64,000 bases of DNA from contig CAMEEX010000002.1 of assembly GCA_945915235.1 (NCBI GenBank), positions 6 through 64,005 on the forward strand. The letters run 5' to 3'. Shown piece by piece: positions 4,226-25,615 of the stretch (position 1 is its first letter; each line of letters begins with the position of its first letter). A program made the translations under genes and the position numbers. Under the pieces are notes generated by a model. That model was not told the DNA's origin. It saw only the letters and a list, made by a program, of their open reading frames with translations, and searched no databases. The DNA comes from an uncultured Clostridia bacterium. GTDB taxonomy: Bacteria; Bacillota; Clostridia; Lachnospirales; Lachnospiraceae.

Positions 4226-5797
4226 TTATATTTTCAAGGCTTTGACTATCCTCCTGCAACTTTCATTGTCATGAAATTTGTGCATGATACCCGTCAGCCT
4301 GCGTCTTTTTTCTGCCTTATCGTCCTCGCCCCGGTATACTCTGTCTATAAACCCACAAAAATTCTCAAAATTGTATAACTCATCTCCCGGAAGCCACTCC
4401 AATATGTTATCGAACACAAAGCCCCTGCTGTCTCTATATTCTTCAACATCATCAAGTGTAAATGCTATCGGTCTGTCAAGCAGCATATAGTCAACCGCAG
4501 CCGAAGAATAATCACTTATAAGCGCGTCCGCACAGCCAAGAAGCTGGTTGATCTGAATATCGCTGTCAAACAAAGTATCATTATCAATCATAACCATATT
4601 CGACAGTTCAAAATTCATTATCTTTGTCTTGTCCTGAAAAGGGTGCAGTTTTACAAGCAGGACAATATTTCTTTCTTTGAGATATAAATTAAGCTCCTTG
4701 CATCTTTCCAAGGTATTCACAATCGGCAGACCCGTCTGATTCTGATATTCGTATTCATTGAGATTTTCAAGACCTGATTTAGCCATACGAAATGTAGGCA
4801 GCCAGAAAACATACTTATCCGCCGCCGGAAGCTCCAGGCGCGTCATGTAGTCATCTGATTTATCGAACAGCCAGTCCTGCTTGGCATATCCTGTCACAAG
4901 CATCTGATTTTCATTAAGTCCATATATTTCCCGGTGAATATCTGAGTACAAATCACTGATTACCGTAGTGTACTCATATCTTTTTTCACATCTGACAAAA
5001 TTAACCCTTGTCTTAAATCCACAGCCATGCCATAGCTGGACTCTGACCTGGTCCTTCCTGCTGTTCCTTGCAAAGCCGTACGCATCTGTAAAAAATATAT
5101 ACTTTGCAAGACACAATACCCTATAGTATTCGTCCCTCTTGTCCATATCCTCACTGTCAGCCCAATCATACCCGATAAAGGATACATTCCTATAATCTCT
5201 TGTATATCTGTAGTATTTACCGGCAGGCTGTGTGAAATCGTCGGGATTTTTTACAAGCCAGACAAGCTCATATTTATCATTATAATGGTTAGAAAGCATA
5301 TATTCAAATAATGCTCTTGCATTATCGGAAAAGTCCATTCCATTTACATAGGAAGCCGCATGCGGTCCACTGCGGAATAATATAATATTTTCCAGAGAAT
5401 GAATTTCATATTTTTTTCTGTATGACAAATCAATTTCTGTTTCACGGTTCGGAAAAACATAGATTGGAATATTATATTTTTCTTCATCAATATACTGCAA
5501 AAGTGTACTATATACCTCTTTAAAAAAATCATCGGTAATTACGAAAACCGTGTCATCAAGATTAACTTTATTCAGTGTATCAAATCCGCAGACTTCTATC
5601 TCATGCCCGTCAACATCATGCTTTCCGTGATTTCTTGCATTGGCATCCAACACTCCCCGAATGGAATTGTCATAACCATATTTTAAGATATACTGTTCTA
5701 AATACGATGGCGAATACCCTACAAAAAAGATACCTCTTCCCGATATATCTCCATAATTTTTATCCGTCAAAATTACAAGCTCATCTGTTTTCTCCAT
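4226..5797 (-). CDS. TagB/TagF-family CDP-alcohol (glycerol/ribitol) phosphotransferase with degenerate N-terminal Rossmann-like module
   Basis: LWHGCGFKTR, WLPTFR and ISDYSSAAVDYMLLDRPI are Glyphos_transf motifs. The N-terminus GIFFVGYSPSYLEQYILKYGYDNSIRGVLDAN...TVFVIT follows the module pattern. Confidence 0.8.
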   Translation of the reverse strand: MEKTDELVILTDKNYGDISGRGIFFVGYSPSYLEQYILKYGYDNSIRGVLDANARNHGKHDVDGHEIEVCGFDTLNKVNLDDTVFVITDDFFKEVYSTLLQYIDEEKYNIPIYVFPNRETEIDLSYRKKYEIHSLENIILFRSGPHAASYVNGMDFSDNARALFEYMLSNHYNDKYELVWLVKNPDDFTQPAGKYYRYTRDYRNVSFIGYDWADSEDMDKRDEYYRVLCLAKYIFFTDAYGFARNSRKDQVRVQLWHGCGFKTRVNFVRCEKRYEYTTVISDLYSDIHREIYGLNENQMLVTGYAKQDWLFDKSDDYMTRLELPAADKYVFWLPTFRMAKSGLENLNEYEYQNQTGLPIVNTLERCKELNLYLKERNIVLLVKLHPFQDKTKIMNFELSNMVMIDNDTLFDSDIQINQLLGCADALISDYSSAAVDYMLLDRPIAFTLDDVEEYRDSRGFVFDNILEWLPGDELYNFENFCGFIDRVYRGEDDKAEKRRRLTGIMHKFHDNESCRRIVKALKI

Positions 5798-5811
5798 CAG
5801 TCTCTTCCATC

Positions 5812-7011
5812 CTATATCCAGCCATCAGCCTCGGCAAAATCCCAGAAAATCTCCTGCTGTTCAAACCATAGCAGTTTATTTTCCGGCACTCCGCGCCCGG
5901 CTAATTCTCTTTTTATTTCTGCCGACTTTACCTTATTCTTTACGGTTATCAGAATGTAGTCATAATCTATCCCTGCCAAATCCCTAGACGAAGTAAAATC
6001 CGAATCGACACTATATACAATCCTAAAGGAAGTATCCATAACCGCAACAACGCTGCTTCTTCCGTCATTTAAAATCTGTTTTTTATAAATCTCTCCCAGC
6101 TCACCTGCCCCGAACAGAATAAGCTTGGAATTGTGCGGTATCTTTTCCAGATAATACGGCTTAATCCATAATAAATTTTTATTTTCAAAACCAAGCCTTG
6201 AATTAATCCCCTTATACAACAGCTCTGTTATGTATAACTCAGCCTGCATTCTCATCGATGATGTAAAATTCGGATGAGCATACATGGAAATAAAATGCTG
6301 ATATACCGAGTTGACTGCTGTCAGATAATTTGTATTAGGCTTATGAACCATTGAAGAATTGTTCTGCATATAGTGATAGTAGGCTTCCCGTGCGATAAAA
6401 ACAGTTTTACAATCCAACATATATCTTACCACACATAATTTATCTTCCGAATAGGATATGCTGTCCTCAATACAATTCTGTGCCACACTTAATAAATCCT
6501 TTTTAAACAGCTTGCAGCACAGGGAACCTCTTATGCCGACATCCTTTTTTTCAATATTATATATGACCTGCTCTCTAAGCCCGTCCATTCTTTCTTCATC
6601 ATAGAAGCCCTCAGGAACGGTATCATAGTGCTGCGTTATATAATTTCCCTCATATTTATAACCGCTTGATACAAGGTCCGCACCCGTCTCGGTCATATAT
6701 CCGTAAAGCCTCTCATACATATCGTCATCAATCCAGTCATCGCTGTCGACGTATCCTATGTACTCCGAGCCTGCGCCTGCGATACCTGCCTTTCTCGCAG
6801 ACACAAGCCCCCCATTAGGCTTGTCAATTATCTTTATTCTGCAATCCCTGTCCTGATATCTTCTCAGCATATCAAGGCTGTTGTCTGTGGAGCCATCATT
6901 CACGCATATTATCTCTATATCCTCAAGAGTCTGTCTTAAGACACTGTCCAGACATCTCTCCAGATATTCAGAGGTATTATATACCGGTATTATTATCGAA
7001 ACCTTTGTCAT
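5812..7011 (-). CDS. GT2 glycosyltransferase with C-terminal Rossmann-like module
   Basis: VSIIIPVYNTSEYLERCLDSVLRQTLEDIEIICVNDGSTDNS and DSDDW are GT-A motifs. The C-terminus carries KLILFGAGELGEIYKKQIL...YDYILITV. Confidence 0.8.
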   Translation of the reverse strand: MTKVSIIIPVYNTSEYLERCLDSVLRQTLEDIEIICVNDGSTDNSLDMLRRYQDRDCRIKIIDKPNGGLVSARKAGIAGAGSEYIGYVDSDDWIDDDMYERLYGYMTETGADLVSSGYKYEGNYITQHYDTVPEGFYDEERMDGLREQVIYNIEKKDVGIRGSLCCKLFKKDLLSVAQNCIEDSISYSEDKLCVVRYMLDCKTVFIAREAYYHYMQNNSSMVHKPNTNYLTAVNSVYQHFISMYAHPNFTSSMRMQAELYITELLYKGINSRLGFENKNLLWIKPYYLEKIPHNSKLILFGAGELGEIYKKQILNDGRSSVVAVMDTSFRIVYSVDSDFTSSRDLAGIDYDYILITVKNKVKSAEIKRELAGRGVPENKLLWFEQQEIFWDFAEADGWI

Positions 7012-7017
7012 CTTTTT

Positions 7018-8448
7018 TCACCTGTTTTTTATCTTTTCAAGAATAATCGCTGCTATTTTTTCTGATGCATGTCCATCATCATAATTTTTCATTTTCCGCA
7101 TGAACTCATGCAGCCTGTGCCTGTAGGCATCATAATCAAAATCAAGTATCTTCCCACATAACTCGCTGTTGGACATACTCCTTATATATGGCAGTTCCTC
7201 CATAGGAATATAGAAATTCCTGTCATTAATATATTGCTCATAATCTTTCTGATATAAAAATACAGGACGTTCCGTAAACGAAAAATCATACATACAACCT
7301 GAATAGTCGGTTATCAGAACATCTGTTGCCGCCAGCAGCTCCTCGAAATCATCATATTTATCAACCGCTATATACACATTCTCATCAAAAGAATATTCTA
7401 TATTTCTGATATCCGGGTGTTTGCTTACTGCACACACAAACCTTCTGTTAAATCTTTTTTCTAACGCCCTGAGCACTTCATTTATGTCCAGATCATAATT
7501 CTCCGTTCCAAAATCCTTGCGGAACGTAGGAGCATACAGCACCATTCCAACCTCATCAGGTAGATTGTAATACTTGAAAACCTTTTCCCTTATATTGCTT
7601 TTGCTCCAGAATACATCCTGCCTCGGCAGACCAACCTGCGATATCTCGCCGTCATACCAGAAGGATTTTCTATACAGCTCGGTGTAAAATTCACTTCCCG
7701 AGATAAACAAATCCGCCATTTTAGAATCATTTATCGCATTGGCTAGATAGGTTTCAGGCAGCTTTTCTATTATATCCTTCTCAACCCTTTTTATGGGCGC
7801 TGCTCCATGCCATGCCTGAATGTAATACTGTCCCTGCCTTTTACGGGTGTCAAATGTCTTTCTTGAATTATCCACCCATATATGTGCTGTCGCCAGCTCT
7901 TCGTAATACTCTCTCGTTCCAAGCTTTACCTGCCTGATTTCCTTTGGAAGGTTATTGCTCAAATCGGACACAACCCACACCAGATCGCACTCTTTTTTTG
8001 TGTCCGATTCCAATAGTTTTTGTGCAATGTATTTAGGATTACAGCCGTATCCCATGCCCTTCATATTCATAAAAAGAATTTTATTGTTCTGTATCGGCTT
8101 CCTGTACAGCTTGTCATAAAACCCATCTATCAACTGTTCCGGATTTACAAAATACACCCGTGAACACCCAAGCCCGTTCAGCTTATCACCGATTATCTGA
8201 TGAAGCACTCTCTGAACGGCAACTATGTACAGCGCATCAGGATAAATCGCGCTTACCTTATCAACAACCTCAACATCAATACCGAATTTCTCATTGGCAT
8301 TCCCGCCCATTTCCGAAACGACAAAGTTTCTTATTTTATCTGAAAAACCATTTTCCTCCAAATAAAAATAGAGAATATTTGAAATTGTCCCTGCGCCATA
8401 TATAACTATATTTTCTGTTTCCTGACAAAGCATGTCCAGACTTTCCAT
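7018..8448 (-). CDS. TagB/TagF-family CDP-alcohol phosphotransferase with N-terminal Rossmann-like module
   Basis: The N-terminus carries NIVIYGAGTISNILYFYLEENGF...ALYIVAV. AWHGAAPIKR, LYAPTFR and ITDYSGCMYDFSFTERPVFLY follow. The start could instead be M6 (8433). Confidence 0.8.
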   Translation of the reverse strand: MESLDMLCQETENIVIYGAGTISNILYFYLEENGFSDKIRNFVVSEMGGNANEKFGIDVEVVDKVSAIYPDALYIVAVQRVLHQIIGDKLNGLGCSRVYFVNPEQLIDGFYDKLYRKPIQNNKILFMNMKGMGYGCNPKYIAQKLLESDTKKECDLVWVVSDLSNNLPKEIRQVKLGTREYYEELATAHIWVDNSRKTFDTRKRQGQYYIQAWHGAAPIKRVEKDIIEKLPETYLANAINDSKMADLFISGSEFYTELYRKSFWYDGEISQVGLPRQDVFWSKSNIREKVFKYYNLPDEVGMVLYAPTFRKDFGTENYDLDINEVLRALEKRFNRRFVCAVSKHPDIRNIEYSFDENVYIAVDKYDDFEELLAATDVLITDYSGCMYDFSFTERPVFLYQKDYEQYINDRNFYIPMEELPYIRSMSNSELCGKILDFDYDAYRHRLHEFMRKMKNYDDGHASEKIAAIILEKIKNR

Positions 8449-8455
8449 AATAATA

Positions 8456-8809
8456 TTAATTGCTCTCCCTTATAATATGAATTTTGTTGATGCCACAAGC
8501 CATCAGCTTCTCCGTCATCTGGCGCACACACATGCTGGCAACAAGATACACTGCATTCGGGTGCAGTCTAACCGCCTCCTCGACACTGTATATGTTCTTA
8601 TCCATAAGTATTCCTCCGACAATCGCTGCATTGCCGTCGCAAAAGCCTTTAACACTATCGGCGCGCCCTTTAAGCGAGAGCACCTCCCAACAATGCTTTC
8701 CCACTTTCCCGGCTCCATATATTATAATATCTTTTTCATCAAATATCTTTTTATCCTGCTCTATTGTTCCAATATAATCCACGTCAATCCCCCATATACT
8801 CTGAAACAC
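8456..8809 (-). CDS. Free-standing copy of the Rossmann-like module (possibly the frameshifted C-terminus of the upstream deacetylase)
   Basis: DIIIYGAGKVGKHCWEVLSLKGRADSVKGFCDGN...AVYLVAS. GTG start. It overlaps the 3' end of 8784-9692 by 26 nt, with a G5 run at the junction. Confidence 0.55.
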   Translation of the reverse strand: MFQSIWGIDVDYIGTIEQDKKIFDEKDIIIYGAGKVGKHCWEVLSLKGRADSVKGFCDGNAAIVGGILMDKNIYSVEEAVRLHPNAVYLVASMCVRQMTEKLMACGINKIHIIRESN

Positions 8810-9692
8810 ATTTTATAAAATCTTCCAACTCACAATCGTCAATGGCTACCCTTGGTATTTCATACAATGAGTCCCCCGTTCTCCAAACCTTTTTTACTGT
8901 CGTTGCCGATTTCTTTATCCCGTTATTCCTGCATATATCTAAAGTATCGCTATTATAATGAACTGCCGAACCAAATGGAAACGAAAACGTCTCCACACTT
9001 TTTCCTATATAATCGTTCAGACATCTGATGGATTTACCTATTTCATATTCCTGCTGTTCCCTCGTCTGGCTTCCAAGCGATATATGATTAACCGTGTGTG
9101 CCCCCAGTGTTATAAGCTCCGAATCAGAAAGTGCTTTCAGCTCCTCAATGCTGACCGGCAAATTCTCTTTTCTGGCAGTATTATCAATATCCGCCCACTT
9201 TCTCAACTGCTCAAACCACTCAAATGCAAGTCTGTAATCCGGCTCCATCTTCAATAACCAATGAAGAGTCTTTATAAGCTCCACTCTCTTTTCATATGTA
9301 TCAGTCTCCCATGTGTATGCATATAATTTATCTTCCAAAGTAAACTTGGCCGGATATTGTTTTTTTACGGTGAGCAGTCTGACAATCTCGTCCCACCAGT
9401 ACTCTTTACCGGAATTGACATACCCTGTACTTATAAAAATCGTTGCGGGAACCTGTGTCTTTTCAAGTATAGGCAAAGCATATATATAGTTATCAGCATA
9501 TCCATCATCGAATGTGACAACAACCGCATCGCGTTCTCCCTGCTCCCAATCGTCCTCAAATCTCAAAATGTCATATTTGCTTTTTATATAGTTCATCTGC
9601 TCTTCAAAATGTTCCGGGCTGACCGCAAGATTAAATATCTCATCCTTTACAGCATTAACTCTATGGTAAAGCAGGCAAAGTACCTTTTTCAT
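8784..9692 (-). CDS. Polysaccharide deacetylase (CE4 / NodB homology domain)
   Basis: VVVTFDDGYADNY and LGAHTVNH are NodB motifs. Confidence 0.8.
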   Translation of the reverse strand: MKKVLCLLYHRVNAVKDEIFNLAVSPEHFEEQMNYIKSKYDILRFEDDWEQGERDAVVVTFDDGYADNYIYALPILEKTQVPATIFISTGYVNSGKEYWWDEIVRLLTVKKQYPAKFTLEDKLYAYTWETDTYEKRVELIKTLHWLLKMEPDYRLAFEWFEQLRKWADIDNTARKENLPVSIEELKALSDSELITLGAHTVNHISLGSQTREQQEYEIGKSIRCLNDYIGKSVETFSFPFGSAVHYNSDTLDICRNNGIKKSATTVKKVWRTGDSLYEIPRVAIDDCELEDFIKCVSEYMGD

Positions 9693-9724
9693 ATTTCCAT
9701 CACAGTAATTAACTCTATATAATA

Positions 9725-10963
9725 TTACTTCCAGAATATAAAGTAATTATCTATCTTCCTTTCCTTAAGAATATTTTCAATTTGAACCCGAGGAGTCTCC
9801 TTGACAACGGTGACTATAATGCCATTATTCTCATCATCAGTATAATCTGATATGTTTATAACCGGAATTTTATCTATGTCCGATATATTTTTGCCCGAGG
9901 AAACGATAAATGCCTTTGGTTCAATTCCGTTTTTTCTCAGCCAGCTTAAGCAAAAACGTCCCGCATCACCTGCTCCATACAAATATATATTCTTCTTAGC
10001 GGATGCTGCTTCCAACATTCCCTGCAAATTCGCCGGCAGCTTCCTGACCTCCGCCAGTGTAGGAAACGGAAAAAACGCATGCAGACTGTGGAAAATTTCC
10101 GTCAGGCTGCTCTGCAAAAACAGATTCTGCTTCCGTGCGTATTCCGAAGACATAACCTCGCCTGTATCATATCCGGCATCCTGTGCAACATACGCGAAAA
10201 TCCGTTCCACTCCATAGCTTAAATAATCAGAATGTGCCAACTGCACATCATCAAAATCCTCGTATGTCCATGCATACCTAAACAGTTTTTCCAGTGCTGC
10301 CGTTCTGAACCACAGCGCTGTTCCAATGGTTATTGGCGGCTTCGTCTCCTGCAAATCACATTTCAATCCAAGCCTATCCGCCAAATTCTTTGTGGTCCTA
10401 AACGAACCATGCCACCCATACCCATACCATGTACAAAAATGCACCCCGATTGGAGCCGGAGGAGCAAGAACCCCCAGTTCCTTATTCTGCTCAAACAGCT
10501 CAATAATCTGTTGAATATACCCCGTGCCTCCGATTAAATTTCCCCATATATTTTCGACCCAGAGTGTCGTATCATCTTTGGTCTCAGCGGAGTGTTCCTT
10601 CTTGTCATGGACGAAGCAGACATACTCATAATCAGGAACTACCTGTCCGGCTGCAATCAGCAAGCCACTTATATCACGCCCCGTATTCGGTTTCATTATT
10701 ATATTTATATTGGTACGCTGTGTGTTTTTTATATAATCCTTTACCTTATCCCTTACGCTATCTAACGGTGTAACAATATACACATCTATTCCCGTATCAA
10801 TACAGCTTATATACTTAAAATAATTTTCCAGTGTGTCAAAATAATACAGATATAAAATTATTGCTGCTTTTCTTTTGGAGTAAGACTCTCTGACAGGCTT
10901 CATCTCATTCGCAAGAATAAAGCACAGCCCTTTTTCCTGTTTTATATCATAAACATTTTTCAT
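9725..10963 (-). CDS. RgpF-like (rhamnan synthesis protein F family) glycosyltransferase with C-terminal Rossmann-like module
   Basis: LYLYYFDTLENYF...IDVYIVT...NTGRDISGLL...FVHDKK resembles the RgpF pattern. The C-terminus carries NIYLYGAGDAGRFCLSWLRKNG. I set the start at ATG 10963 (GAGGT 7 nt upstream) rather than the track GTG at 11017. Confidence 0.65.
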   Translation of the reverse strand: MKNVYDIKQEKGLCFILANEMKPVRESYSKRKAAIILYLYYFDTLENYFKYISCIDTGIDVYIVTPLDSVRDKVKDYIKNTQRTNINIIMKPNTGRDISGLLIAAGQVVPDYEYVCFVHDKKEHSAETKDDTTLWVENIWGNLIGGTGYIQQIIELFEQNKELGVLAPPAPIGVHFCTWYGYGWHGSFRTTKNLADRLGLKCDLQETKPPITIGTALWFRTAALEKLFRYAWTYEDFDDVQLAHSDYLSYGVERIFAYVAQDAGYDTGEVMSSEYARKQNLFLQSSLTEIFHSLHAFFPFPTLAEVRKLPANLQGMLEAASAKKNIYLYGAGDAGRFCLSWLRKNGIEPKAFIVSSGKNISDIDKIPVINISDYTDDENNGIIVTVVKETPRVQIENILKERKIDNYFIFWK

Positions 10964-11010
10964 AATCTGTACCTCTATATCTATCAGCCCAATAAAATCT
11001 TCCGGAAAAC

Positions 11011-12126
11011 CTACCACATATCCTCAAGAATATGCTCCAGCGAATAAATCGGACATTTAACTCTCGTAGACATCTCAGAATAAATCTCGTGGAAATGCGT
11101 TACAGCAGTCACAATCATGGCATCTGCATTATCACCCTCGTATTTATCCGGTTTAATTACCGGTAAATCAGAATATGCATATTTATCAGACTTATCCAAA
11201 ATACAGGTTATCTTCATACCTGAGTGCTTTAACTCAGCTATCAAATGCGTTCCAAGTTCCCCATAGCCATATATCGCCACACTGTTAATACCTTGGCGTC
11301 TCAGATAATCTGCAACTCTTTTCTCCGCCTGAAGGAGTGCCAGCCATTCACTGTATATATACTTTATCGCACCGCCATAATCGTCCGCCTTAGGCACTCT
11401 AAGTGCTCCCTGTTCCGGCTTCAAGCCAAATTCCGCATATATTCTCTCGGTTTCCCTTGAATTAATTTTTACGGAATCCACCCTCTCGCTAAATCCACCA
11501 AGTGAATACATACTGACAGGAAAATCCAGCTTTTTCACCTTTATATTTGATAAAAGACAATCATAATACCATTTGAGCTCAGCCCTGAGCTTATAGGACA
11601 CATCAAACGGGTGAGCCAGCAGACATTCCCTTTTAGCAAAAATAGACTGATGATTCAGGTTCAGGGAATGTGTTTCAAGATACGGTCTCATATCCTCACC
11701 CTCAATATTTTCTATAGAAACAGGAACCTGTATATATTCATCCTTATTCGGAAATATGTACACGCACTTTCCATAGTACCAGTCCATTCCCGGTGCTTTG
11801 TCAATCTCGCAATGTATATCATAAAGGGTGTTTTTGTTCAGCAGAAAATCTCCGCTGTTGATAAAACATATATAATCACCCTTAGCTCTTCTGACAGCCC
11901 TATTCATCGCATCATATATGCCATTATCCTTTTCCGAATAAATGCTTATATCTAATTGGCTGTACTTCTCCTTATATTGCTTAACAATCTGCAAGGTATC
12001 GTCGTCAGAGCCACCGTCCTCAATAATATGCTCATAATCGGAAAATTCCTGATTATAGATTGACTCCAAGGTCTGAGCTATTCTTTTCTGTTCATTATAA
12101 CAAATTGTTATGATTGTAAAAAGCAC
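11011..12126 (-). CDS. GT2 glycosyltransferase with C-terminal Rossmann-like module
   Basis: FTIITICYNEQKRIAQTLESIYNQEFSDYEHIIEDGGSDDDT. The C-terminus carries SVAIYGYGELGTHLIAELKHSG...DAMIVTAV. GTG start with GAGGT upstream. Confidence 0.75.
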   Translation of the reverse strand: MLFTIITICYNEQKRIAQTLESIYNQEFSDYEHIIEDGGSDDDTLQIVKQYKEKYSQLDISIYSEKDNGIYDAMNRAVRRAKGDYICFINSGDFLLNKNTLYDIHCEIDKAPGMDWYYGKCVYIFPNKDEYIQVPVSIENIEGEDMRPYLETHSLNLNHQSIFAKRECLLAHPFDVSYKLRAELKWYYDCLLSNIKVKKLDFPVSMYSLGGFSERVDSVKINSRETERIYAEFGLKPEQGALRVPKADDYGGAIKYIYSEWLALLQAEKRVADYLRRQGINSVAIYGYGELGTHLIAELKHSGMKITCILDKSDKYAYSDLPVIKPDKYEGDNADAMIVTAVTHFHEIYSEMSTRVKCPIYSLEHILEDMW

Positions 12127-12155
12127 TTGTGTTTACCTCGCTTAACTGTATTTAA

Positions 12156-13334: not shown

Positions 13335-13372
13335 CTTATTTCCTCTGTTAATGAAATTAACACGGCGCACTA

Positions 13373-14470: not shown

Positions 14471-14472
14471 TT

Positions 14473-15597: not shown

Positions 15598-15642
15598 CCT
15601 ATTTTTCCTAAATTGTATTTTGATATATGTAATATAAAAATA

Positions 15643-17133: not shown

Positions 17134-18254
17134 TATTTTTCCTCACTATAATTTTTCGTATGAATACATAATTTAACTCCTCTAACTAATGCCCTGTTTA
17201 AACTTGTTGAAATATAGGTCTGTCTCATCTTCCACGGATACCACATATACCCTTTAGACGTAGTATGACTTACTCCCATAATATCCATCTGATTTTCTAT
17301 AAGCGTCTGGTCAAAATCACTATGATAACAGCAGATAGCCATAGATATATTTTCAGAACGGTCAATAAGCGAAGCTGCTCCCCTTAACGCATCCCATTCA
17401 TTACCTTCTATGTCCATTTTAATAAAATCTACCGGCTGATTTATCAATGAATCCAATTTTGCATACTTTCCCTCATCATATGAAGTTATGTATTTTTCAA
17501 TTATGCAGACTTTATCCATATATTTCTCAAAAGTATGTTTAAGAGCCTGTATCCATCCCGGATCTGTTTCAATAATATATAACTTTTTTACTCTTTCAAT
17601 TATTTCCAAAGAAAAGTTTCCCTCAGCAACCCCTGCATCGATAACAACACTACCCGGTTTAACCACAAAATCTTCCGTTATATATCTATGTGGGGATTCC
17701 TCATCCTGTTCAAGACATACCGAATTATAGTAGTTCTCAACCTGCTCCTTCGTCTTAAATTCAGGAGTAAAATACATTTTCATACCTTTATGTATAACGT
17801 AAAACAGCCCACATTCCTCATCTAAATAAACATTATATTTTTTATCACAATATTTTTTTACAAAATCATAATTAAATACACCTAATTTGTTACAGCTTAG
17901 ATATTTTAAAATTTGCTGTATTTCACTATCCTTTGAGTTAGCATATCGCTTCATTATACTTCTTTTGTAAAAAAAACTTCTATCCTCAACCCTTCCTATG
18001 TACGATTTGTCAAGTGATACAATTTGATCGTATATTTCATTATATGCGTTTGCTAATATAACAATTGCATCTATTTTTTCTCTGTTTTCGAGTATAAAAT
18101 CCGCCGAAAATACTTTTACTCCATAAAAATTTATACCATGTTTACCTGCATCATTGTCAACTATTCCAAGTACATTATAATCACTTATTGTCATGCTCTC
18201 AGTCAGTATCTGTTTAGTTAGTCCTGAAGCCCCCCATAAGACTATATTTTCCAT
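17133..18254 (-). CDS. FkbM-family methyltransferase with N-terminal Rossmann-like module
   Basis: The N-terminus carries NIVLWGASGLTKQILTES...IDAIVILA. VIDAGVAEGNFSLE and IKMDIEGNEWDAL are FkbM-type SAM-MTase motifs. The start is at the second ATG (GGAG 7 nt upstream). There is a 1-nt TAATG overlap with the next gene. Confidence 0.7.
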   Translation of the reverse strand: MENIVLWGASGLTKQILTESMTISDYNVLGIVDNDAGKHGINFYGVKVFSADFILENREKIDAIVILANAYNEIYDQIVSLDKSYIGRVEDRSFFYKRSIMKRYANSKDSEIQQILKYLSCNKLGVFNYDFVKKYCDKKYNVYLDEECGLFYVIHKGMKMYFTPEFKTKEQVENYYNSVCLEQDEESPHRYITEDFVVKPGSVVIDAGVAEGNFSLEIIERVKKLYIIETDPGWIQALKHTFEKYMDKVCIIEKYITSYDEGKYAKLDSLINQPVDFIKMDIEGNEWDALRGAASLIDRSENISMAICCYHSDFDQTLIENQMDIMGVSHTTSKGYMWYPWKMRQTYISTSLNRALVRGVKLCIHTKNYSEEK

Positions 18255-18280
18255 AATCATGCTCCTCTTTTAGCCAAAAT

Positions 18281-19507
18281 CTACTCACATTCGTTAATAT
18301 ATTGGTTGATTACAAATGGTTCTATATCTACAATCTTATTATCCGAAAATCCAGGCAACAACCTCTTAATATTGTCTCTTATTTCATCAGCATATATTTC
18401 TGAGGCAATCACAATTACATCAAATTTAAAGAATCGCATTTTATCCGGCGAAATAATAATTGTATTATCAAAAGACTGAAACTGCTTTTCTCTATTTGAA
18501 TCAACAAAAGAAACAATTTCATATTGTTCCTTATCAATTCTCGGAAGCATTTTTCTGCACAGTCCCCCCGTTCCATAAACCAGTAATCTCTTCTTACCTG
18601 TAGATGGCTTAACCTCTCTTAACCTTTCTGATTTTAATTTTAATGCCATGATTTCTGAAAACCGTAACATTATACCCTGCAAATTATCATATACCAGATT
18701 ATCATACTTGGTAGTAATATCAAAACTTAGCTTATCTTCTTTCGTTTCATTTCCTTCATAATATGCATATGACATTGACTTCTGCTCTAAATCAACATTA
18801 TCATTCATAATATCATACATTTTCTTCCAATGTGATCCCGTCTGGATTCCATTGTCAGGATATGACAACATATTAATGCTATTCAATATAATCTGTTTTG
18901 TATATTGATTTTTTCCGCGTATAGGGAAATGTGCAAATCTTAAGTTCTCTGCTTTTCCTTCTTTGCTGCCACCTAGAACTTTAGCGCTATGATTTCCCTC
19001 TGCAATTATAAGTTTCTTTTCAAGTACCATCTTACCAGGTACGATTACCTTCGTAAATTTTTCCTGAGTATCATCGCGGTAAACAGGATAATCTTCGACC
19101 CTGAACATTCTATCCGGAGCATTTTTATAAATATACGTTCTCCATAAAAGATAATAAATCGTATCATCAGATAATTTTTCAATCTCTTCTCTTACACCAG
19201 CTCCGGCAATGTTGATAAGCATTTCATCAGCATCCATTAACACCAGAAAATCTATATTATTAGATTTCACAAAATTATATGTATACTTGTTAGCAAATTT
19301 ATAGGCATCAAATTCACTTGCTGCCTCATCTATCAACATTATTGGCAATCCCTCATCAATCAAGCTGTTTATTATCTCATATGTGCCATCAATGCTTCCG
19401 TTATCTATAACCAATATACTGTCAAAAAACTGTGCATGATATCTGAGGAAATATTCTATTATGTCTGCTTCATTTTTAACCTTGGTAATTAAACCTAGTT
19501 TTTTCAT
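18281..19507 (-). CDS. GT2-like glycosyltransferase (Glyco_tranf_2_4-like) with C-terminal Rossmann-like module
   Basis: ITKVKNEADIIEYFLRYHAQFFDSILVIDNGSIDGT and MDADE. The C-terminus carries RLLVYGTGGLCRKMLPRID...FDVIVIAS. Confidence 0.6.
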   Translation of the reverse strand: MKKLGLITKVKNEADIIEYFLRYHAQFFDSILVIDNGSIDGTYEIINSLIDEGLPIMLIDEAASEFDAYKFANKYTYNFVKSNNIDFLVLMDADEMLINIAGAGVREEIEKLSDDTIYYLLWRTYIYKNAPDRMFRVEDYPVYRDDTQEKFTKVIVPGKMVLEKKLIIAEGNHSAKVLGGSKEGKAENLRFAHFPIRGKNQYTKQIILNSINMLSYPDNGIQTGSHWKKMYDIMNDNVDLEQKSMSYAYYEGNETKEDKLSFDITTKYDNLVYDNLQGIMLRFSEIMALKLKSERLREVKPSTGKKRLLVYGTGGLCRKMLPRIDKEQYEIVSFVDSNREKQFQSFDNTIIISPDKMRFFKFDVIVIASEIYADEIRDNIKRLLPGFSDNKIVDIEPFVINQYINECE

Positions 19508-19520
19508 ATTATCACCGTTC

Positions 19521-20894
19521 TTACATATTAATAGCCAACTTTATGTAATCTCCCATTTCATATATTTCACAATTGTTCCCAAGTGAAGCCAACAATTCTT
19601 CTTTTATGTCAGCACTCACCTTATTATCTGCTATAGCAATCATTATTTGATAATCTTCATTGATACTTATTAAATTCTTTAAACTGATTACCGGTATATT
19701 TTCAACTGTATATTCATACGATACATTTGTCTGGCAAAACATATCAACTTTTATACCCATATTCAGCATATAATGTAACAATCTTCGTCCAAAATCCCCT
19801 GCCCCATAGATTATCTTACTTTTTTTACTCTTAATAATCGCCTCTCTTATATCATCAAAATAATCTATAGTATATTTTACATATTTTTTGTATGATTGCT
19901 CAAAGCACTCATCATATAGGTTCTCCTGAATGCAGCGGCACTCTTCACACCATTCAGATAACTCTTTTTTTGTCATCCTTCGTATATTCTTACAATTCAA
20001 CAAAGAATCGCATAACATTATATCCATTTTTTGAACTTGATAGTTAAATTTTTTATGCGTCTCAATATTAAATTCCATCATATATTTCAAGTAATTGGTA
20101 TAAAATTTTATTCTAATATCCTCACTGCATTTTATTGAAGAATTCCATGAGCCTTCGTGCATATAATTTCTTACTGACCAACACTTATCTATGTAATATA
20201 CATCACCATTAAAAGCGCACCAAAATCTCAGAGGATCATCCCCCACCGGACTTGTCATAAAAAAATGTGGTATATTACACCAGTATTCATGTCTAAAAAG
20301 AAATGACGCTGTGGCAGGCCGCCCATGAGCACATGAAAAAATCTCATCGGCATCTACAACTCCACTGTCCATATTAATGATTTGCGGAATTACTTCACCG
20401 GCAGTCTCATCAAAGCGTATGGCATTGTGAAAGCAAAGGCTTACATTCGGCATCCGCTCCATCAGTTCATACTGAACTTGCAATTTATCCTGATATAGCC
20501 AATAATCATCGCCTTCACAAAGTGCAATATACTTTCCTCTCAATTCATACTGCTTAAAGTATGCCATTACTTCCTTTCTTTTACTATGTGAATATGTATT
20601 TGTTTTAGCTATTATTGCACGGATTAATCCAGGATATTTTGTCGCATATTCTCTGACAATATCGGACGTTCCATCATTTGATGCATCATCAAACACAACT
20701 ATTTCATACCCTACATTTAACTTTTGTTTTACAAATCCCTCCAATGTCTTTCTTATATATTTCACATGATTGTATGTTGCACATGAAATAGTTATCTCAA
20801 CCTTTTTACTTTTCAATTCATCCGAATAGAATTCCTCATAATCTGTCAACTGCTCTATTTGGGTGTAGAGTTCATTTGAATTAATTTTTTCCAT
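19521..20894 (-). CDS. GT2 glycosyltransferase with C-terminal Rossmann-like module
   Basis: ITISCATYNHVKYIRKTLEGFVKQKLNVGYEIVVFDDASNDGT and CEGDDYW. The C-terminus carries KIIYGAGDFGRRLLHYMLNMG...YQIMIAIA. Confidence 0.75.
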   Translation of the reverse strand: MEKINSNELYTQIEQLTDYEEFYSDELKSKKVEITISCATYNHVKYIRKTLEGFVKQKLNVGYEIVVFDDASNDGTSDIVREYATKYPGLIRAIIAKTNTYSHSKRKEVMAYFKQYELRGKYIALCEGDDYWLYQDKLQVQYELMERMPNVSLCFHNAIRFDETAGEVIPQIINMDSGVVDADEIFSCAHGRPATASFLFRHEYWCNIPHFFMTSPVGDDPLRFWCAFNGDVYYIDKCWSVRNYMHEGSWNSSIKCSEDIRIKFYTNYLKYMMEFNIETHKKFNYQVQKMDIMLCDSLLNCKNIRRMTKKELSEWCEECRCIQENLYDECFEQSYKKYVKYTIDYFDDIREAIIKSKKSKIIYGAGDFGRRLLHYMLNMGIKVDMFCQTNVSYEYTVENIPVISLKNLISINEDYQIMIAIADNKVSADIKEELLASLGNNCEIYEMGDYIKLAINM

Positions 20895-20920
20895 GTTAAT
20901 TTATATCCTTCCCTAACAAC

Positions 20921-23014
20921 CTAAAGTGCAACAACATTCACATAAGGCAAATTCCTGTCTTGCAATATATTCACTATTTCATCATAATATTTACCCGATA
21001 CCGCTGGTATAATTTCAATTCCTTCACAGCGTCCCACTATCTGTTCCAATGTGTATACTGGAAAATTGTTATACTGATCTATACAGTTTTTATTTGTAAC
21101 CACAAAGCCATGTATTGTAGTATTTCTTGATTGCAATAATCTGAATATCTTATCCGCCCACACTCCTGTTCCATATAGATAAATATCTTTTCCAGTACAG
21201 TAATCACACAACTTTTCAAGGTTATTCTCAAGAATTATATCCTCACTACGTCTAACAAAGCGCTTTATAGCATTACTATCAGGGATTGCATCTTTTAATT
21301 TTATTATTTTATTTGCATCCGCAATCTCATCTACAGGTTCTGTATTCTTAGAAGTTTTGATAATATTCAAAACTTCCCCAATTGCATACAATGCCATTAA
21401 CTTATCCTCCGAATGAAATACTATACCATTCTCACACTTTTTGACAGCTTTATTGAACATGGCATCTGCTACACTTTTTCCAAAAGCATCGGAATATATA
21501 CCCTCTTTATAATAATTTTCCACAATATTTTTGATGTCTTCGAACATTCCATTCTGCTCAATGTCATCAATGTTCAACTTATTTTGAATAAAATTTCTAT
21601 AAGGTATAGCCGCAACTGTACTCTCCGCTTTTAGCATCGGATATTTATTGCATAGGTAATCCACATACTTTAATGTATCCTCTTCGAACTTATGCCCTCT
21701 ATCAAATCTATAGTTCAATAATTCAGGGCAGCACCTTTTAATTATCAATGCATATATAACCTCTCGTTTATGTTCCTCTCCTACATCCAGCCCCCTCAAT
21801 GTATAATCCATAAACGGAGATAACATAAACATATTGCTCATCATCCAACGTGTCACCTGTTTACCAAAAAACTTTTCATCCAAGGTTTCCATCATGACAT
21901 ATTCACTATTACTATAAGCATTTATAATATCGTTCCCCGTATATTCTGTAGCTATCCTATGTGAATCTATAGTGTCTAGCAAGGCATCATATAAAATTCC
22001 TGCATTCTCTAAGCCGTCCGCAAATGAAGCCATACGTTCAAAATCCCAATATCCTCTTACGGTCTCACCAAAATGTCCACCTATTCTTATTACTGTGTCA
22101 TCATATATAAGTTCAGGACCCAATACCTGATTCATATCATCAAGCATACAATATTTATATACATCCCTCCAACATTCTCCTTTAACCTTCTGGTTATCAA
22201 AATAATAAGAATCAGAGCAAACTTTAAAATTAAAGTCCCTTGCAATGTCTTCTACAATTTCATAATCCTCATTAAAATATTCTTTTGCTACTTTATCAAC
22301 CGGTTTCGATGTAAAAACTATAATTTTGTCACTATTCAATTTAATGCCACTATAGTTGACCAGCGCAAAAACCGTTCTGCTGTCAAATCCACCTGACAGT
22401 TCTACCCTCATGCGCCACCCGCCAAGCTCTAATCCCTTATATAATTTTGCCCATTTATTAATCCATGTGTCAATAATCCGCATACCTTCTTCAGAATCTA
22501 TATTAACGCGTCTTTTTAACCTATAATCATTATCAATTCTGAATTTTTTATCTTTAATATCAATATATACCGTCGACCATATTGGCACTGATTTTATCTC
22601 ATTTACTAATGTTTTAAATACAGACTGCGACATCATATCTGTAAGAAATAATGACTCTGCATCTCCGATATTAAGCGTAATCTTTTTCTGAACCCCTACA
22701 GTCTCCAATAATTTGAAAAAGGAATTACTCACAGCCCAATAATTATCATCCGAATAATAATATAACCGCATAACTCCCATACTGTCTCTTTGTATATATA
22801 ACTCACCTTGTTTTTTTCTTATAATGATGTATGCACCAACAGCATCATTTAAATCCTCATCACTAATGCTTTCAACCTGCTTATACTCCGAAATATAAGT
22901 ATTTTGGCAGAACATATAACCATAAATATCAGACTCAAACGTGTCCACCGTATCTGAAGTCACAACAAAAAAATTCTTATCAAGCCATTTACTCAAATCA
23001 TTAATATTTTTCAT
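20921..23014 (-). CDS. Asparagine-synthetase-like PP-loop (adenylating) enzyme lacking the N-terminal Cys nucleophile, with C-terminal Rossmann-like module
   Basis: VELSGGFDSRTVFAL is an SGGxDS PP-loop, preceded by an Ntn-like region (ELYIQRDSMGVMRLYYY). The N-terminus is MKNIN..., not MCG. The C-terminus carries DIYLYGTGVWADKIFRLLQSRN. The start is at ATG 23014 after GAAGGG. Confidence 0.7.
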   Translation of the reverse strand: MKNINDLSKWLDKNFFVVTSDTVDTFESDIYGYMFCQNTYISEYKQVESISDEDLNDAVGAYIIIRKKQGELYIQRDSMGVMRLYYYSDDNYWAVSNSFFKLLETVGVQKKITLNIGDAESLFLTDMMSQSVFKTLVNEIKSVPIWSTVYIDIKDKKFRIDNDYRLKRRVNIDSEEGMRIIDTWINKWAKLYKGLELGGWRMRVELSGGFDSRTVFALVNYSGIKLNSDKIIVFTSKPVDKVAKEYFNEDYEIVEDIARDFNFKVCSDSYYFDNQKVKGECWRDVYKYCMLDDMNQVLGPELIYDDTVIRIGGHFGETVRGYWDFERMASFADGLENAGILYDALLDTIDSHRIATEYTGNDIINAYSNSEYVMMETLDEKFFGKQVTRWMMSNMFMLSPFMDYTLRGLDVGEEHKREVIYALIIKRCCPELLNYRFDRGHKFEEDTLKYVDYLCNKYPMLKAESTVAAIPYRNFIQNKLNIDDIEQNGMFEDIKNIVENYYKEGIYSDAFGKSVADAMFNKAVKKCENGIVFHSEDKLMALYAIGEVLNIIKTSKNTEPVDEIADANKIIKLKDAIPDSNAIKRFVRRSEDIILENNLEKLCDYCTGKDIYLYGTGVWADKIFRLLQSRNTTIHGFVVTNKNCIDQYNNFPVYTLEQIVGRCEGIEIIPAVSGKYYDEIVNILQDRNLPYVNVVAL

Positions 23015-23049
23015 AATAAACACCCTTCTGCAGTATTACTACAATAAAC

Positions 23050-24141
23050 TTACCTTATAGAGTCGATAAAATCTTCTAATCTCAGTTTATCGTCTTCTGA
23101 CAATATATCCTCTTGCTTTAATCTTTCACGTTTTACTTCCTCATCAGATATTGCCAACGCATAATGCTTTGTCGCAAATGTATTTACATCAACGGTAACC
23201 AGTCCATTTGATGAAAAAGGCAACAAATATAATTTTCCATCTTTATATACCATATTAGAAAACGGAATATCTTTTACGCCTCTTATGCTGTCAATATTTT
23301 TAAATGTATCCGGCAATTCAATTTTTCTCATCTCGGCAGCCGAAGTATCCTGTACATATATGGAGCCATCCGAATTCACATAAAAAATGTTATTATTTTT
23401 TTTAAGTGCAAATGAACATGAGTTTATTCTTCCATTTTCACTGTCCAGAACCAAGCTTGCAGTACCATCGTCATTTATCCCAAATACACTTTTTCTGTCA
23501 GTTCCACAAGCAAACACCTTTTCCACATCCCCCGTTATCTTGGATAATAGCTTTCCACCGCAATGAATAAGTTTAATAACCTCACCTGCAATATAATCTG
23601 CATATATCACCATATCCGTTCCCGAAACAGCAAACCAGACCCTACCGTTATCACATATATAACTATATATTTTATTCTCACTATTAAACTCTATTGGAAT
23701 ATCTATAATATCTGAAAACGCCAAACCTTGGTCATATGTTCCAGTCTCTGTGTCATATACCATAATATGCTGATTAATATTATACGGAAGCATATAAATC
23801 CTACCTTCAACTGCTTCAGCGCTACAATACAGAAGTTCTCCTATCTTACCAATATTATAATTTAATCCAAGTCTGGTAAAATGCCCTGTAAATCTATCGA
23901 TCTTTATTAACTGAGCTGTATTTCTCAATATACAATAAATAAAATCCCCAACCAAAAGCGAAGTCATTATAAGTCCTACTCTATATATCTCATTATATCT
24001 CCCCAATGGCATTAATCTTGAAATAGTATTATACTTTTCCGTGTCTAAATCCCACTCTGCCATCAACCATGAATCCATATCACTCATAATCAACTTGTTA
24101 TCCAGAAACAGCACATTGTACGTTGACAAATATTTATCCAT
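23050..24141 (-). CDS. Hypothetical protein, repeat-containing (possibly beta-propeller-like), acidic helical C-terminus
   Basis: The ORF fills the gap in the operon. It has recurring hydrophobic-strand/turn segments (IYMLPYNINQHIMVYDTETGTY, VWFAVSGTDMVIYADY, IFYVNSDGSIYVQD, KLYLLPFSSNGLVTVD). I recognise no catalytic motif. Confidence 0.4.
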   Translation of the reverse strand: MDKYLSTYNVLFLDNKLIMSDMDSWLMAEWDLDTEKYNTISRLMPLGRYNEIYRVGLIMTSLLVGDFIYCILRNTAQLIKIDRFTGHFTRLGLNYNIGKIGELLYCSAEAVEGRIYMLPYNINQHIMVYDTETGTYDQGLAFSDIIDIPIEFNSENKIYSYICDNGRVWFAVSGTDMVIYADYIAGEVIKLIHCGGKLLSKITGDVEKVFACGTDRKSVFGINDDGTASLVLDSENGRINSCSFALKKNNNIFYVNSDGSIYVQDTSAAEMRKIELPDTFKNIDSIRGVKDIPFSNMVYKDGKLYLLPFSSNGLVTVDVNTFATKHYALAISDEEVKRERLKQEDILSEDDKLRLEDFIDSIR

Positions 24142-24171
24142 TAAATTATACCTATCCTATCTGCTTAACGC

Positions 24172-25581
24172 TTAAGCCTTACATTTTCTATAATCATCTA
24201 TCAACTTGTACACATCTATAATATTCCCTTTAAAACCTTGCCCTCGTAAATCGGCTTTTATATGTTCATACTGATTATAAACTGTGACAAGCACTGTACC
24301 ATTTTTGTCCAAATATTCACTTTCAATATTATAAAGGTCAATATTTCTGTATTTATTAAGTCTATCATTCCTGTCAATCAGCCCCGTAATTGTCATCCTC
24401 TTCTCGGACTCGTTTAAAAGTATTAATGTCTTAGCAATTGCAGAAAAACCATACAGATACAAATTGTCGCTTGTTTTACAAACATTTTCCGCTATATATT
24501 CGTATAGTTTATTACTGTTCATAAGCTGATTAATAATGCTCATTATTACTTCCTGTTTCGACTTTTCCAATGGTCCCATACCTATATTACTTGCTAAGTC
24601 AGCTGACCATAACAATACCTTAGGATCTTTAAAAATTGGTGATTTCATTACCTCTACATATTGTTCATAATACGGATGATATGGATTTCTAACATCCATA
24701 AACCACTGTATATTTTTATCATATATTCCGCCTGGAACAATCGGACGTATTCTTACCTTATCAGCCCCGAACTCTTCTATACATCGTCTTGCAAATTCAG
24801 GCATCTCCCTGAAATTTTCTTCCTGCAATACTGTCGCAAGCTCAAGGTAATTAATAACGCCTTCTTCTCTGAGCTTTTTTACATACCTCAAATTATTTTC
24901 TATATTAGATATCGGCAGTCTCGTTCCGGATAAATGCTGATAGACCATCTCATTAAAACTCATAACCGTAATACTGACATGCAAATTGTACTTTCCAAGA
25001 TTTGCTATTTTACCCCAATTTTTTTCATTAAAAAGAGAACCATTTGTTTCTAATGCCACTGTCACCTGCTCTGGTGGCGCGATAGGTTTCCATTCTGCAA
25101 GAAGTTTCATAGTCCTCGGACTGGCAAAGAGTTCCCCCCTTCCATTTGCTGAAATGTTTTTTACGTATGGCATTAGTTCTCTTAATCGAGACTCAAGTTT
25201 TTCATACTGTTCTGTATAATCGTTTTCCTTAGTATCTTTCATGTGCTGATAGCTTGTACAACATGTACAGCTATAATTACAATTTCCCTCATATCCCAGC
25301 AGCAACATATCAGGATAATCAGGAAGTGTTTCAATATCAATATATATATCATCTAAATTTCCATTTGAGAGAAATGGACAATTATCTGCATCACAATATG
25401 CAAAGCTACCATCCTGAAATGTTTTCAAAATATCTGCAGCTTTCTCTCCATTTATTAGGGTACTATAATCTGCATCAATAATATTCCCAATCAAATTTTT
25501 TTTCATCCAGCCACAAACTCGTGCGTCACCCTCAGCATTTATAATCTGAAGCCAATTTACAGCTCTTCTACAAACTTTCAT
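24172..25581 (-). CDS. Radical SAM enzyme with N-terminal Cys-rich (SPASM/twitch-like half motif) region and C-terminal Rossmann-like module
   Basis: CNYSCTCC is a CX3CX2C motif. The N-terminus carries CRRAVNWLQIINAEGDARVCGW and YCDADNCPF. The C-terminus carries NLYLYGFSAIAKTLILLNESEK...TVLVTV. The start is at ATG 25581 after GGAGG. Confidence 0.7.
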   Translation of the reverse strand: MKVCRRAVNWLQIINAEGDARVCGWMKKNLIGNIIDADYSTLINGEKAADILKTFQDGSFAYCDADNCPFLSNGNLDDIYIDIETLPDYPDMLLLGYEGNCNYSCTCCTSYQHMKDTKENDYTEQYEKLESRLRELMPYVKNISANGRGELFASPRTMKLLAEWKPIAPPEQVTVALETNGSLFNEKNWGKIANLGKYNLHVSITVMSFNEMVYQHLSGTRLPISNIENNLRYVKKLREEGVINYLELATVLQEENFREMPEFARRCIEEFGADKVRIRPIVPGGIYDKNIQWFMDVRNPYHPYYEQYVEVMKSPIFKDPKVLLWSADLASNIGMGPLEKSKQEVIMSIINQLMNSNKLYEYIAENVCKTSDNLYLYGFSAIAKTLILLNESEKRMTITGLIDRNDRLNKYRNIDLYNIESEYLDKNGTVLVTVYNQYEHIKADLRGQGFKGNIIDVYKLIDDYRKCKA

Positions 25582-25615
25582 ATATGCCTCCAAAAATTTC
25601 CCAATTTATGTAATA

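Follow-up and report, generated by a model that had tools for sequence, protein, structure and literature searches.

A Rossmann-like module shared by most enzymes of a putative flagellin glycosylation island in a Lachnospiraceae bacterium

The glycan gene array and its fourteen module copies

The window analyzed here is a 64,000-nucleotide (nt) stretch of contig CAMEEX010000002.1 (GenBank assembly GCA_945915235.1, positions 6 to 64,005 of the forward strand), assigned to an uncultured Clostridia bacterium of the family Lachnospiraceae. Its central feature is a tightly packed, co-directional array of glycan genes, in which one Rossmann-like accessory domain, hereafter the module, recurs on enzyme after enzyme (Table 1; genes are named by their window coordinates, or by the first coordinate alone). 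The array holds all of the module genes together with precursor enzymes. Between 4226 and 25593, 14 of 17 genes, all on the minus strand, carry the module, 13 of them as a fusion. An earlier note on this DNA had described these 13 hosts as catalytically unrelated, which overstates their diversity: by Pfam and NCBIfam assignment they fall into seven families, namely glycosyltransferase (GT) family GT2 (six hosts: 5812, 11011, 12156, 13373, 18281 and 19521), TagF-type (two hosts: 4226 and 7018), RgpF (9725), WbsX (15643), FkbM methyltransferase (17133), radical SAM (24172) and a weakly AsnB-like protein (20921). Three hosts (4226, 7018 and 17133) have the module at the N terminus, and the other fused hosts have it at the C terminus. 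The AsnB-like host shows weak similarity only, to GATase_7, asparagine synthase and lasso cyclase (residues 64-223), and phmmer found no relative of it in the PDB; its catalytic part is essentially uncharacterized.

Three genes between 4226 and 25593 lack the module: a CE4 deacetylase (8784), a UDP-GlcNAc 2-epimerase (14473) and 23050-24141 (minus strand), which has a weak DUF6923 repeat match and no confident family. The free-standing copy adjoins the CE4 gene, and its product is probably a protein of 108 amino acids (aa) whose start, at about 8782, immediately follows the stop codon of CE4. The precursor enzymes farther upstream are all module-free, which agrees with the earlier observation that soluble precursor makers lack the module. 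The accompanying generalization, that the module marks transferases and tailoring enzymes, holds only in part, since six transferases of the island are without it: three LicD proteins, one GT4+GT2 protein and two DUF3880/CgeB-like glycosyltransferases.

Table 1. Features of the window, with coordinates counted from its first nucleotide
Feature	Position	Strand	Details
Cytidylyltransferase gene, IspD/TarI-like	856-1599	+	
Nucleotidyltransferase + choline-kinase fusion gene, LicC/LicA-like	1520-3421	+	
24-gene array	3533-31502	-	Intergenic distances -32 to +45 nt
Ribulose-phosphate 3-epimerase gene	3533-4225	-	
Degenerate module, N-terminal in TagF-type (Glyphos_transf) 4226-5797	5381-5764	-	Leave-one-out E = 0.022
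Module, C-terminal in GT2 5812-7011	5836-6150	-	Leave-one-out E 1e-9; precomputed PF22674
Module, N-terminal in TagF-type 7018-8448	8110-8436	-	Leave-one-out E 2e-11
25-nt repeat copies	8390-8414, 8709-8733, 9969-9993, 13620-13644		
Free-standing module, gene 8456-8809	8459-8755	-	Leave-one-out E 1e-11
CE4 polysaccharide deacetylase without module	8784-9692	-	Pfam Polysacc_deac_1; conserved partner of free-standing copy
Module, C-terminal in RgpF-like 9725-11017	9728-10015	-	Leave-one-out E 5e-12
Module, C-terminal in GT2 11011-12126	11014-11307	-	Leave-one-out E 1e-14
Module, C-terminal in GT2 12156-13370	12159-12464	-	Leave-one-out E 8e-10
Module, C-terminal in GT2 13373-14470	13376-13666	-	Leave-one-out E 1e-11; weak Methyltransf_14 match
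Module, C-terminal in WbsX-like 15643-17133	15646-15936	-	Leave-one-out E 2e-9
Module, N-terminal in FkbM-type methyltransferase 17133-18260	17934-18257	-	Leave-one-out E 4e-5
Module, C-terminal in GT2-type (Glyco_tranf_2_4) 18281-19507	18290-18613	-	Leave-one-out E 5e-9
Module, C-terminal in GT2 19521-20894	19524-19844	-	Leave-one-out E 1.5e-11
Module, C-terminal in 700-aa weakly AsnB/lasso-cyclase-like 20921-23023	20924-21211	-	Leave-one-out E 3e-8
Module, C-terminal in radical SAM 24172-25593	24181-24489	-	Leave-one-out E 8e-9; degenerate loop GFSAIA
Two paralogous LicD-fusion genes, ~775 aa	31780-34113, 34135-36456	-	Module-less
DUF3880 + Glyco_trans_1_2 (CgeB-like) glycosyltransferase pair	38098-39486, 39344-40510	-, +	Divergent; adjoining flagellin gene
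Flagellin gene, 272 aa	40605-41423	-	Pfam Flagellin_N + Flagellin_C; heads island, upstream of glycan genes

The 14 segments lie in the genes named earlier, where every glycine-loop string then quoted is present, and they can be aligned across about 95 residues. The claim that they are homologous was upheld by three tests. Pairwise phmmer searches linked 12 of the 14 at E < 1e-3, and leave-one-out hidden Markov models (HMMs; E values computed with Z = 1000) recovered all but the 4226 copy at E ≤ 4e-5. An HMM built outside the window, from 255 domain instances among representative-library matches with the 14 segments left out, recovered all 14, 13 of them at an independent E value (iE) of ≤1e-8, although a few of these 255 represent clusters to which window proteins belong, and the test is not fully independent. 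Its top match was the 9725 module (68.8 bits), and the 17133 module, with the poorest of the 13 solid leave-one-out values, was found at 8.5e-14 and also has CoA_binding and NeuD matches. The weakest copy, 4226, scored iE = 3e-5 (19 bits) over residues 44-116 only, with the glycine loop outside the match; that loop (FVGYSPS) is degenerate, as had been noticed from the sequence. The next match in the window after the 14 copies was a TrkA_N Rossmann domain of TrkA, at 17 bits. No other protein of the window weakly matched the module profile, so that TrkA sets the background score. This TrkA gene (58882-60321, plus strand; two TrkA_N and two TrkA_C domains) adjoins trkH and encodes a distant Rossmann relative. 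A 14-copy profile found no further copies among the 418 six-frame open reading frames (ORFs) of the window.

Judged by sequence, a single autonomous domain is present in 14 homologous copies, 13 solid and one degenerate. Chance similarity is ruled out by the pairwise, leave-one-out and outside-built HMM tests, and an artifact of gene calling or assembly is ruled out by identical proteins on independent metagenome contigs and by orthologous fusions in an isolate genome.

The copies are strongly diverged, with 13 to 27% identity to the free-standing copy. The sole DNA repeat family in the array is a 25-nt element encoding K-I-V-I-Y-G-A-G, which covers β1 and the first part of the glycine loop; of the listed copies, the fifth (28830-28854) falls in an aminotransferase gene and probably matches by chance. 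Modules follow their own hosts across loci, but locally the nearest module can sit on a different host: that of the GT2 protein 11011 is nearest in the window to that of the WbsX protein 15643 (4e-11). The modules of 12156 and 5812 pair at 8e-11 by phmmer. The low identity, the single repeat and the tracking of hosts by modules rule out recent duplication within the locus or gene conversion. Because modules track hosts, the nearest module is in places on another host and shared DNA is limited to the 25-nt repeat, the fusions are judged to be old, with occasional shuffling.

A G-x-G-x-x-[GASTC] loop is retained in 11 of the 14 copies, the exceptions being 4226, 17133 and 24172, and the aspartate that ends β2 is retained in 10. 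Across 269 instances of the family, the three GxGxxG glycines are kept at 97, 88 and 74% and the β2 aspartate at 82%; other kept positions are an aspartate before β4 (63%), a leucine in the last long helix (87%) and a glycine after that helix (74%). Among 40 orthologues of 5812-7011, the loop, the β2 aspartate and an ITiKN..KA motif are kept at ≥60%, mostly ≥90%, and the C-terminal tail is better kept than the body of the module. The module as a whole is 45% identical among these orthologues, compared to 58% for the GT-A core. Such conservation is the signature, at the sequence level, of a retained nucleotide pocket. A full-length AlphaFold2 model of 5812-7011 reached a predicted local distance difference test score (pLDDT) of 92 and a predicted template modeling score (pTM) of 0.88. 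Because a freely tethered domain of about 100 aa (25% of the chain) would be incompatible with that pTM, the module probably has a fixed position on its enzyme.

Fold, relatives and recurrence of the module

An AlphaFold2 model of the free-standing copy, made from the 14-sequence alignment (pLDDT 91, pTM 0.84), has a β-α-β Rossmann-like topology. The domain consists of β1, a glycine-rich loop, a helix and β2 ending in aspartate, followed by three to four strand-helix units. Against the PDB, Foldseek ranked Rex-family repressors first (E 4e-5, template modeling [TM] score ~0.7), followed by VioB, 3nkl, biliverdin reductase, WbaP (8t53) and 2g6t, while a sequence profile matched 3nkl (7e-8), Rex (1e-7), 2g6t (6e-5), WbaP (6e-4) and PglD (6e-3). 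The module belongs to the Rex-C/CoA-binding/PglD_N/CoA_binding_3 group, and the profile and fold matches to Rex, PglD/VioB, the domain of unknown function (DUF) of WbaP and 3nkl bear out a resemblance that the earlier note had pointed out. At the level of Pfam models, PglD_N (PF17836) matched 6 of the 14 copies, CoA_binding (PF02629) 3, C2185-like_N (PF22674) 2 and Methyltransf_14 1, but hmmscan gave no reportable match to PF13727 (CoA_binding_3) for any window copy. The PglD_N match of 19521-20894 reached 24.4 bits (gathering score 23.4), and the five others, among them 18281, fell below it.

The nearest catalogued family is PF22674, whose model covers only part of the group. With PF22674.2, hmmscan matched 5812 and 18281 only, at 16.7 bits compared to a gathering score of 27; precomputed PF22674.3 matches at E ≤ 1e-5 mark proteins identical to 5812, 17133 and 18281, and precomputed PF22674 matches extend to most orthologues of 5812, to orthologues of 17133 and 18281 and to many proteins homologous to the free-standing copy. 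The related structure 2g6t, an uncharacterized Clostridium acetobutylicum protein homologous to HI1244, is matched by the profile over residues 19-90 (5.8e-5) and by Foldseek (TMq 0.66, E 1.7e-2). We found no paper on PF22674 or 2g6t.

Each of the better known relatives shares part of the picture. The C-terminal domain of Rex (CoA_binding) is the best structural match and has the same Rossmann fold and the same order of motifs along the sequence, including the GxGxxG loop and the acidic residue ending β2. Its context differs, and the winged-helix DNA-binding domain of Rex is found in none of the 14 module proteins. The N-terminal domain of PglD, NeuD and VioB is matched by both sequence and fold through the PDB entries for PglD and VioB. 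However, no window protein has a Hexapep (left-handed β-helix acetyltransferase) domain, and the PglD_N unit, with its three strands, is shorter than the module. One protein in a related locus, L002, is a true hexapeptide acetyltransferase with a module-type N-terminal domain.

The DUF of WbaP, CpsE and EpsZ (PF13727) and the N-terminal domain of PglF/WbpM-type dehydratases (3nkl) are likewise Rossmann-like accessory domains of glycan-pathway enzymes, with Foldseek TM scores of 0.6 to 0.7 to the module. In WbaP, the DUF forms the dimer interface, binds uridine mono-, di- and triphosphate (UMP, UDP and UTP) and is linked to the inhibition of WbaP by UMP (PMC10942596), and in EpsZ, dimerization mediated by the DUF is the regulated step (PMC12802240). 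The WbaP DUF, which dimerizes via a β-hairpin, is flanked by a four-helix membrane bundle on one side and a single fixed catalytic domain on the other. The module, in contrast, is carried by soluble enzymes, from at least seven families here and from others outside the window; it may be N-terminal or C-terminal, stand alone or, elsewhere, be repeated in tandem. The island has no convincing transmembrane segment and no phosphoglycosyl transferase or dehydratase domain. TarS, TarP and RmlT offer a further parallel. The glycosyltransferase part of 5812-7011 resembles CgT, TarP, TarS and RmlT; the last three are the best match to its GT-A part and helical extension, and they too have a C-terminal domain, which sets their oligomeric state. 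These domains have other folds, however, and the likeness is one of architecture, not of homology.

The module is widespread, and metagenomic proteins with two to four tandem copies are numerous. In a library of 1.84 billion representatives, its profile matched 1,020 clusters at E ≤ 1e-10; at E ≤ 1e-3 the number rose to 23,607. Partner domains in a sample of 40 top matches include GT2, GT4-type, DUF4422, GT8, TagF-type, FkbM, WbsX, RgpF, Capsule_synth and class-I methyltransferases, to which related loci add GT-D, WcbI, TOD1_MUCI70, ATP-grasp TupA and the hexapeptide acetyltransferase. Among the best 150 representative matches, which are biased toward multi-copy proteins since scores add up, 110 have two modules, 8 have three and 3 have four, with a median gap of 29 aa; 14 of the 150 consist of two tandem modules alone, in 200 to 290 aa (representatives P0021 to P0170, e.g., P0021, P0023, and P0054). 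By tblastn, plasmids gave no match to the module. A profile search with 63 diverse modules, its candidates gathered by shared words, returned two proteins only.

Related contigs carry three to seven module genes within 5 to 21 kb. The locus of the isolate Lachnospiraceae bacterium WCA-9-b2 (GCA_009830285.1; L016) has seven modules, and a JGI metagenome contig with different gene content (L019) has ten module genes in 20.5 kb. A genome scan with 7018-8448 yielded three loci. The CE4 deacetylase gene is immediately followed by a module gene of 105 to 134 aa in ten loci (L001 to L004, L012 to L016, and L019), orthologues of the RgpF fusion occur in L010 and L012, and L004 has an orthologue of the FkbM fusion 17133. 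Nevertheless, the association with a given enzyme is not obligatory: a WbsX protein has no module in L010 but has one in L019, and a TagF homologue from Acutalibacteraceae (L007) lacks the module, with none within its 18-kb neighborhood. Small proteins of 159 to 168 aa with a leader of 65 to 80 aa before the module (L010 1173-1652 and 4267-4761; L013 870-1376) are encoded beside module-less enzymes, in some cases with the stop codon of one gene overlapping the start codon of the next, and look like split versions of the fusions.

Flagellin context of the island

Upstream of the flagellin gene sit genes for an FlgN-like protein, FliS, FliD, FlaG, FliW, FlgL and FlgK, and the glycan genes, which extend from 39486 down to 3533, are contiguous with flagellin and these filament-assembly genes; the flagellin linkage comes from this window, as the contigs of related loci end before any flagellin gene. 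The G+C content of the glycan array (3500-31600) is 32 to 41%, compared to 43 to 50% in the flagellar and housekeeping flank (32000-62000). Related loci share a conserved 3' cassette (TagF, CE4, small module, GT2, TagF, and Rpe), while upstream gene content varies among them. The array therefore looks like a hypervariable, possibly exchanged, island.

A hydropathy scan found no convincing transmembrane segment in the proteins encoded between 856 and 39486, and a Pfam inventory of the island found no phosphoglycosyl transferase, flippase, polymerase or ABC transporter. The island thus encodes soluble proteins only, without lipid-carrier or export genes, and a membrane-linked polysaccharide pathway is ruled out by the absence of transmembrane proteins, phosphoglycosyl transferase, flippase and transporter. 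The cytidylyltransferase, LicC/LicA-like and epimerase genes, with which the island closes, suggest that the TagF-type and LicD enzymes draw on cytidine diphosphate (CDP)-ribitol, or a similar donor, and on CDP-choline; TarI/TarJ-like genes are additionally present in related loci. In the two LicD paralogues the LicD domain is N-terminal (residues 40-290), and the remaining ~500 residues have no Pfam match. The GT4+GT2 gene is located between the array and the flagellin gene. The two DUF3880/CgeB-like ORFs overlap at their 5' ends, and the true start of 38098-39486 is probably an internal methionine at MRIVYANW; the pair are candidates for transfer of the first sugar onto flagellin. Gene 29422-30372 (minus strand) has no Pfam or NCBIfam match.

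We interpret the array as a flagellin glycosylation island whose enzymes would build a complex glycan with alditol-phosphate and phosphocholine in the cytoplasm, with flagellin as the putative acceptor. There is precedent in Clostridium difficile, where the TagF-like FtaD acts directly on O-GlcNAc-flagellin with a CDP-linked donor (10.64898/2026.02.12.704994).

Possible roles and significance of the module

The module is an accessory unit joined to either end of soluble glycan enzymes, or encoded beside them. What it does there is a matter of weighing several readings; the earlier note had offered docking or oligomerization, (di)nucleotide sensing and acceptor recognition. By analogy with the WbaP DUF, we tentatively favor a regulatory domain that binds a nucleotide and dimerizes, on the grounds of the conserved glycine-loop/aspartate pocket, the tandem copies elsewhere and the behavior of that DUF itself; evidence of this kind fits homodimers and hetero-oligomers alike. 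In this scheme, the module would pack against its own catalytic domain and pair with a second module, in trans in this island and in cis in the tandem-module proteins found elsewhere. A nucleotide, such as a nucleoside mono- or diphosphate by-product, a nucleoside diphosphate (NDP)-sugar or another nucleotide, would be held in the pocket, and a single nucleotide signal could then set the oligomeric state and activity of many steps. That tandem pairs are frequent elsewhere suggests pairing in trans for single copies, and the split versions beside module-less enzymes, together with the conserved pair of CE4 deacetylase and free-standing copy, argue for action of the module in trans as well.

Several observations weigh against a nucleotide-responsive dimerization domain. 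Copies 4226, 17133 and 24172 lack a usable glycine loop and four copies lack the aspartate, so nucleotide binding would not be universal. A single by-product signal would fit only some hosts, because the radical SAM, methyltransferase, AsnB-like and CE4 enzymes release no UMP or UDP, and the GT-A and TagF enzymes' own catalytic domains bind nucleotide donors. LicD proteins and other glycosyltransferases of the same island manage without the module. The C. difficile flagellin-glycan enzyme FtaC was described as lacking an auxiliary domain, and none was described for FtaD. Packing in cis is read from the pTM of one model, and the frequency of tandem pairs comes from a list that favors multi-copy proteins.

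An alternative hypothesis is that modules of different enzymes bind each other, or the free-standing copy, and so hold the soluble enzymes together in a hetero-oligomeric metabolon. The complex would replace the membrane and lipid carrier of other pathways, and any nucleotide pocket would be secondary or vestigial. Such an arrangement would explain why 14 of the 17 genes carry the module regardless of chemistry, in an island that lacks membrane proteins and lipid-carrier machinery, and why other islands have three to ten module genes. It would also accommodate the tandem pairs elsewhere, which suggest contacts between modules, the free-standing and split copies beside module-less enzymes and the degenerate glycine loops of some copies. 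However, the low identity of the copies to the free-standing module and their co-evolution with hosts suit separate homodimers at least equally well, and the high pTM of 5812-7011 suggests a module fixed in place on the enzyme that carries it. Several of the island's transferases have no module, and the strong conservation of the glycine loop and aspartate argues for a real ligand. We regard a metabolon as possible but doubtful. More broadly, the module could be the common connector of a soluble, membrane-free assembly line, whether modules of successive enzymes and free-standing adaptor copies hetero-oligomerize or all of them grip a single nucleotide handle on a soluble carrier, and a long heteroglycan might then be built processively in the cytoplasm, before or during its placement on flagellin. 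This we consider unlikely.

A role in handling substrates follows from a different set of relatives. In PglD and VioB, the N-terminal domain helps to bind the NDP-sugar. By the same token, the module might bind the nucleotide part of an NDP-sugar, a CDP-alditol or a nucleotide-linked intermediate and present it to the catalytic domain. The sequence and fold similarity to the N-terminal domains of PglD and VioB and to Methyltransf_14, the true hexapeptide acetyltransferase of L002 and the rigid packing of the module in the 5812-7011 model are consistent with this idea. So is the documented tailoring of flagellin glycans at the nucleotide level, for which FtaC, which methylates CDP-threonine, is an example. 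In contrast, donor sites are already complete within the GT-A, TagF, radical SAM and methyltransferase folds, and the same host families work without the module in L007, in L010 and in C. difficile FtaC/FtaD. The pairing of a free-standing copy with a CE4 deacetylase does not follow easily from this idea, and placement at the N or C terminus of one host fold would need different geometries. A substrate handle is improbable.

It is also conceivable, though quite improbable, that the module is a passive structural domain, that is, a lineage-specific unit of folding, solubility or homodimerization that has no ligand and no role at the level of the pathway and was spread by domain shuffling in hypervariable glycan islands. 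The closest structural relatives of the 5812-7011 glycosyltransferase part (TarS, TarP, and RmlT) carry unrelated C-terminal oligomerization domains, the module is dispensable in homologues, and it evolves faster than the catalytic core. Yet the glycine loop and aspartate are kept at 74 to 97% across a very diverse family, which would be unexpected for a purely structural unit. Least probable is a redox sensor that binds nicotinamide adenine dinucleotide (NAD(H)) like Rex and makes flagellin glycosylation depend on the cell's redox state: by structure Rex is the best match and by profile the second best, and GxGxxG with an acidic residue ending β2 is the classic dinucleotide fingerprint, but the closest glycan-pathway relatives bind uridine nucleotides or NDP-sugars instead of NAD(H), the Rex DNA-binding domain is absent and several loops are degenerate.

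The fold, its superfamily, a Pfam family and a crystal structure were already known, as was the WbaP precedent for the idea of an accessory domain. PF22674 and 2g6t already cover part of the domain itself. Our literature searches (PF22674, C2185, 2g6t, HI1244, DUF1919, PF13727, PglD_N, and Rex with PglD and glycosyltransferase fusions) returned nothing on the module or on the fusion pattern. Within the literature searched, there is no description of one domain placed on most enzymes of a soluble glycan pathway, whether N-terminal, C-terminal, free-standing or in tandem, across at least seven catalytic families here and others outside the window. Nor is the recurrence of the domain in islands of the Lachnospiraceae type described there.

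Among the major antigens of the gut microbiota are the flagellins of Lachnospiraceae, whose glycosylation is, to our knowledge, almost unstudied. The module provides a cheap sequence marker for finding such islands and a single handle with which to regulate or pull down a whole pathway. Being soluble and easy to express, it also offers a model for an accessory domain that is poorly understood in WbaP-type initiating transferases and PglF-type dehydratases. If modules do link the enzymes that carry them, they would show how a cytoplasmic glycan pathway can be organized without a membrane. Should the module prove to be a common connector of the assembly line, it would represent an organizing principle for protein glycosylation, in the role that the lipid carrier and membrane play in other pathways.

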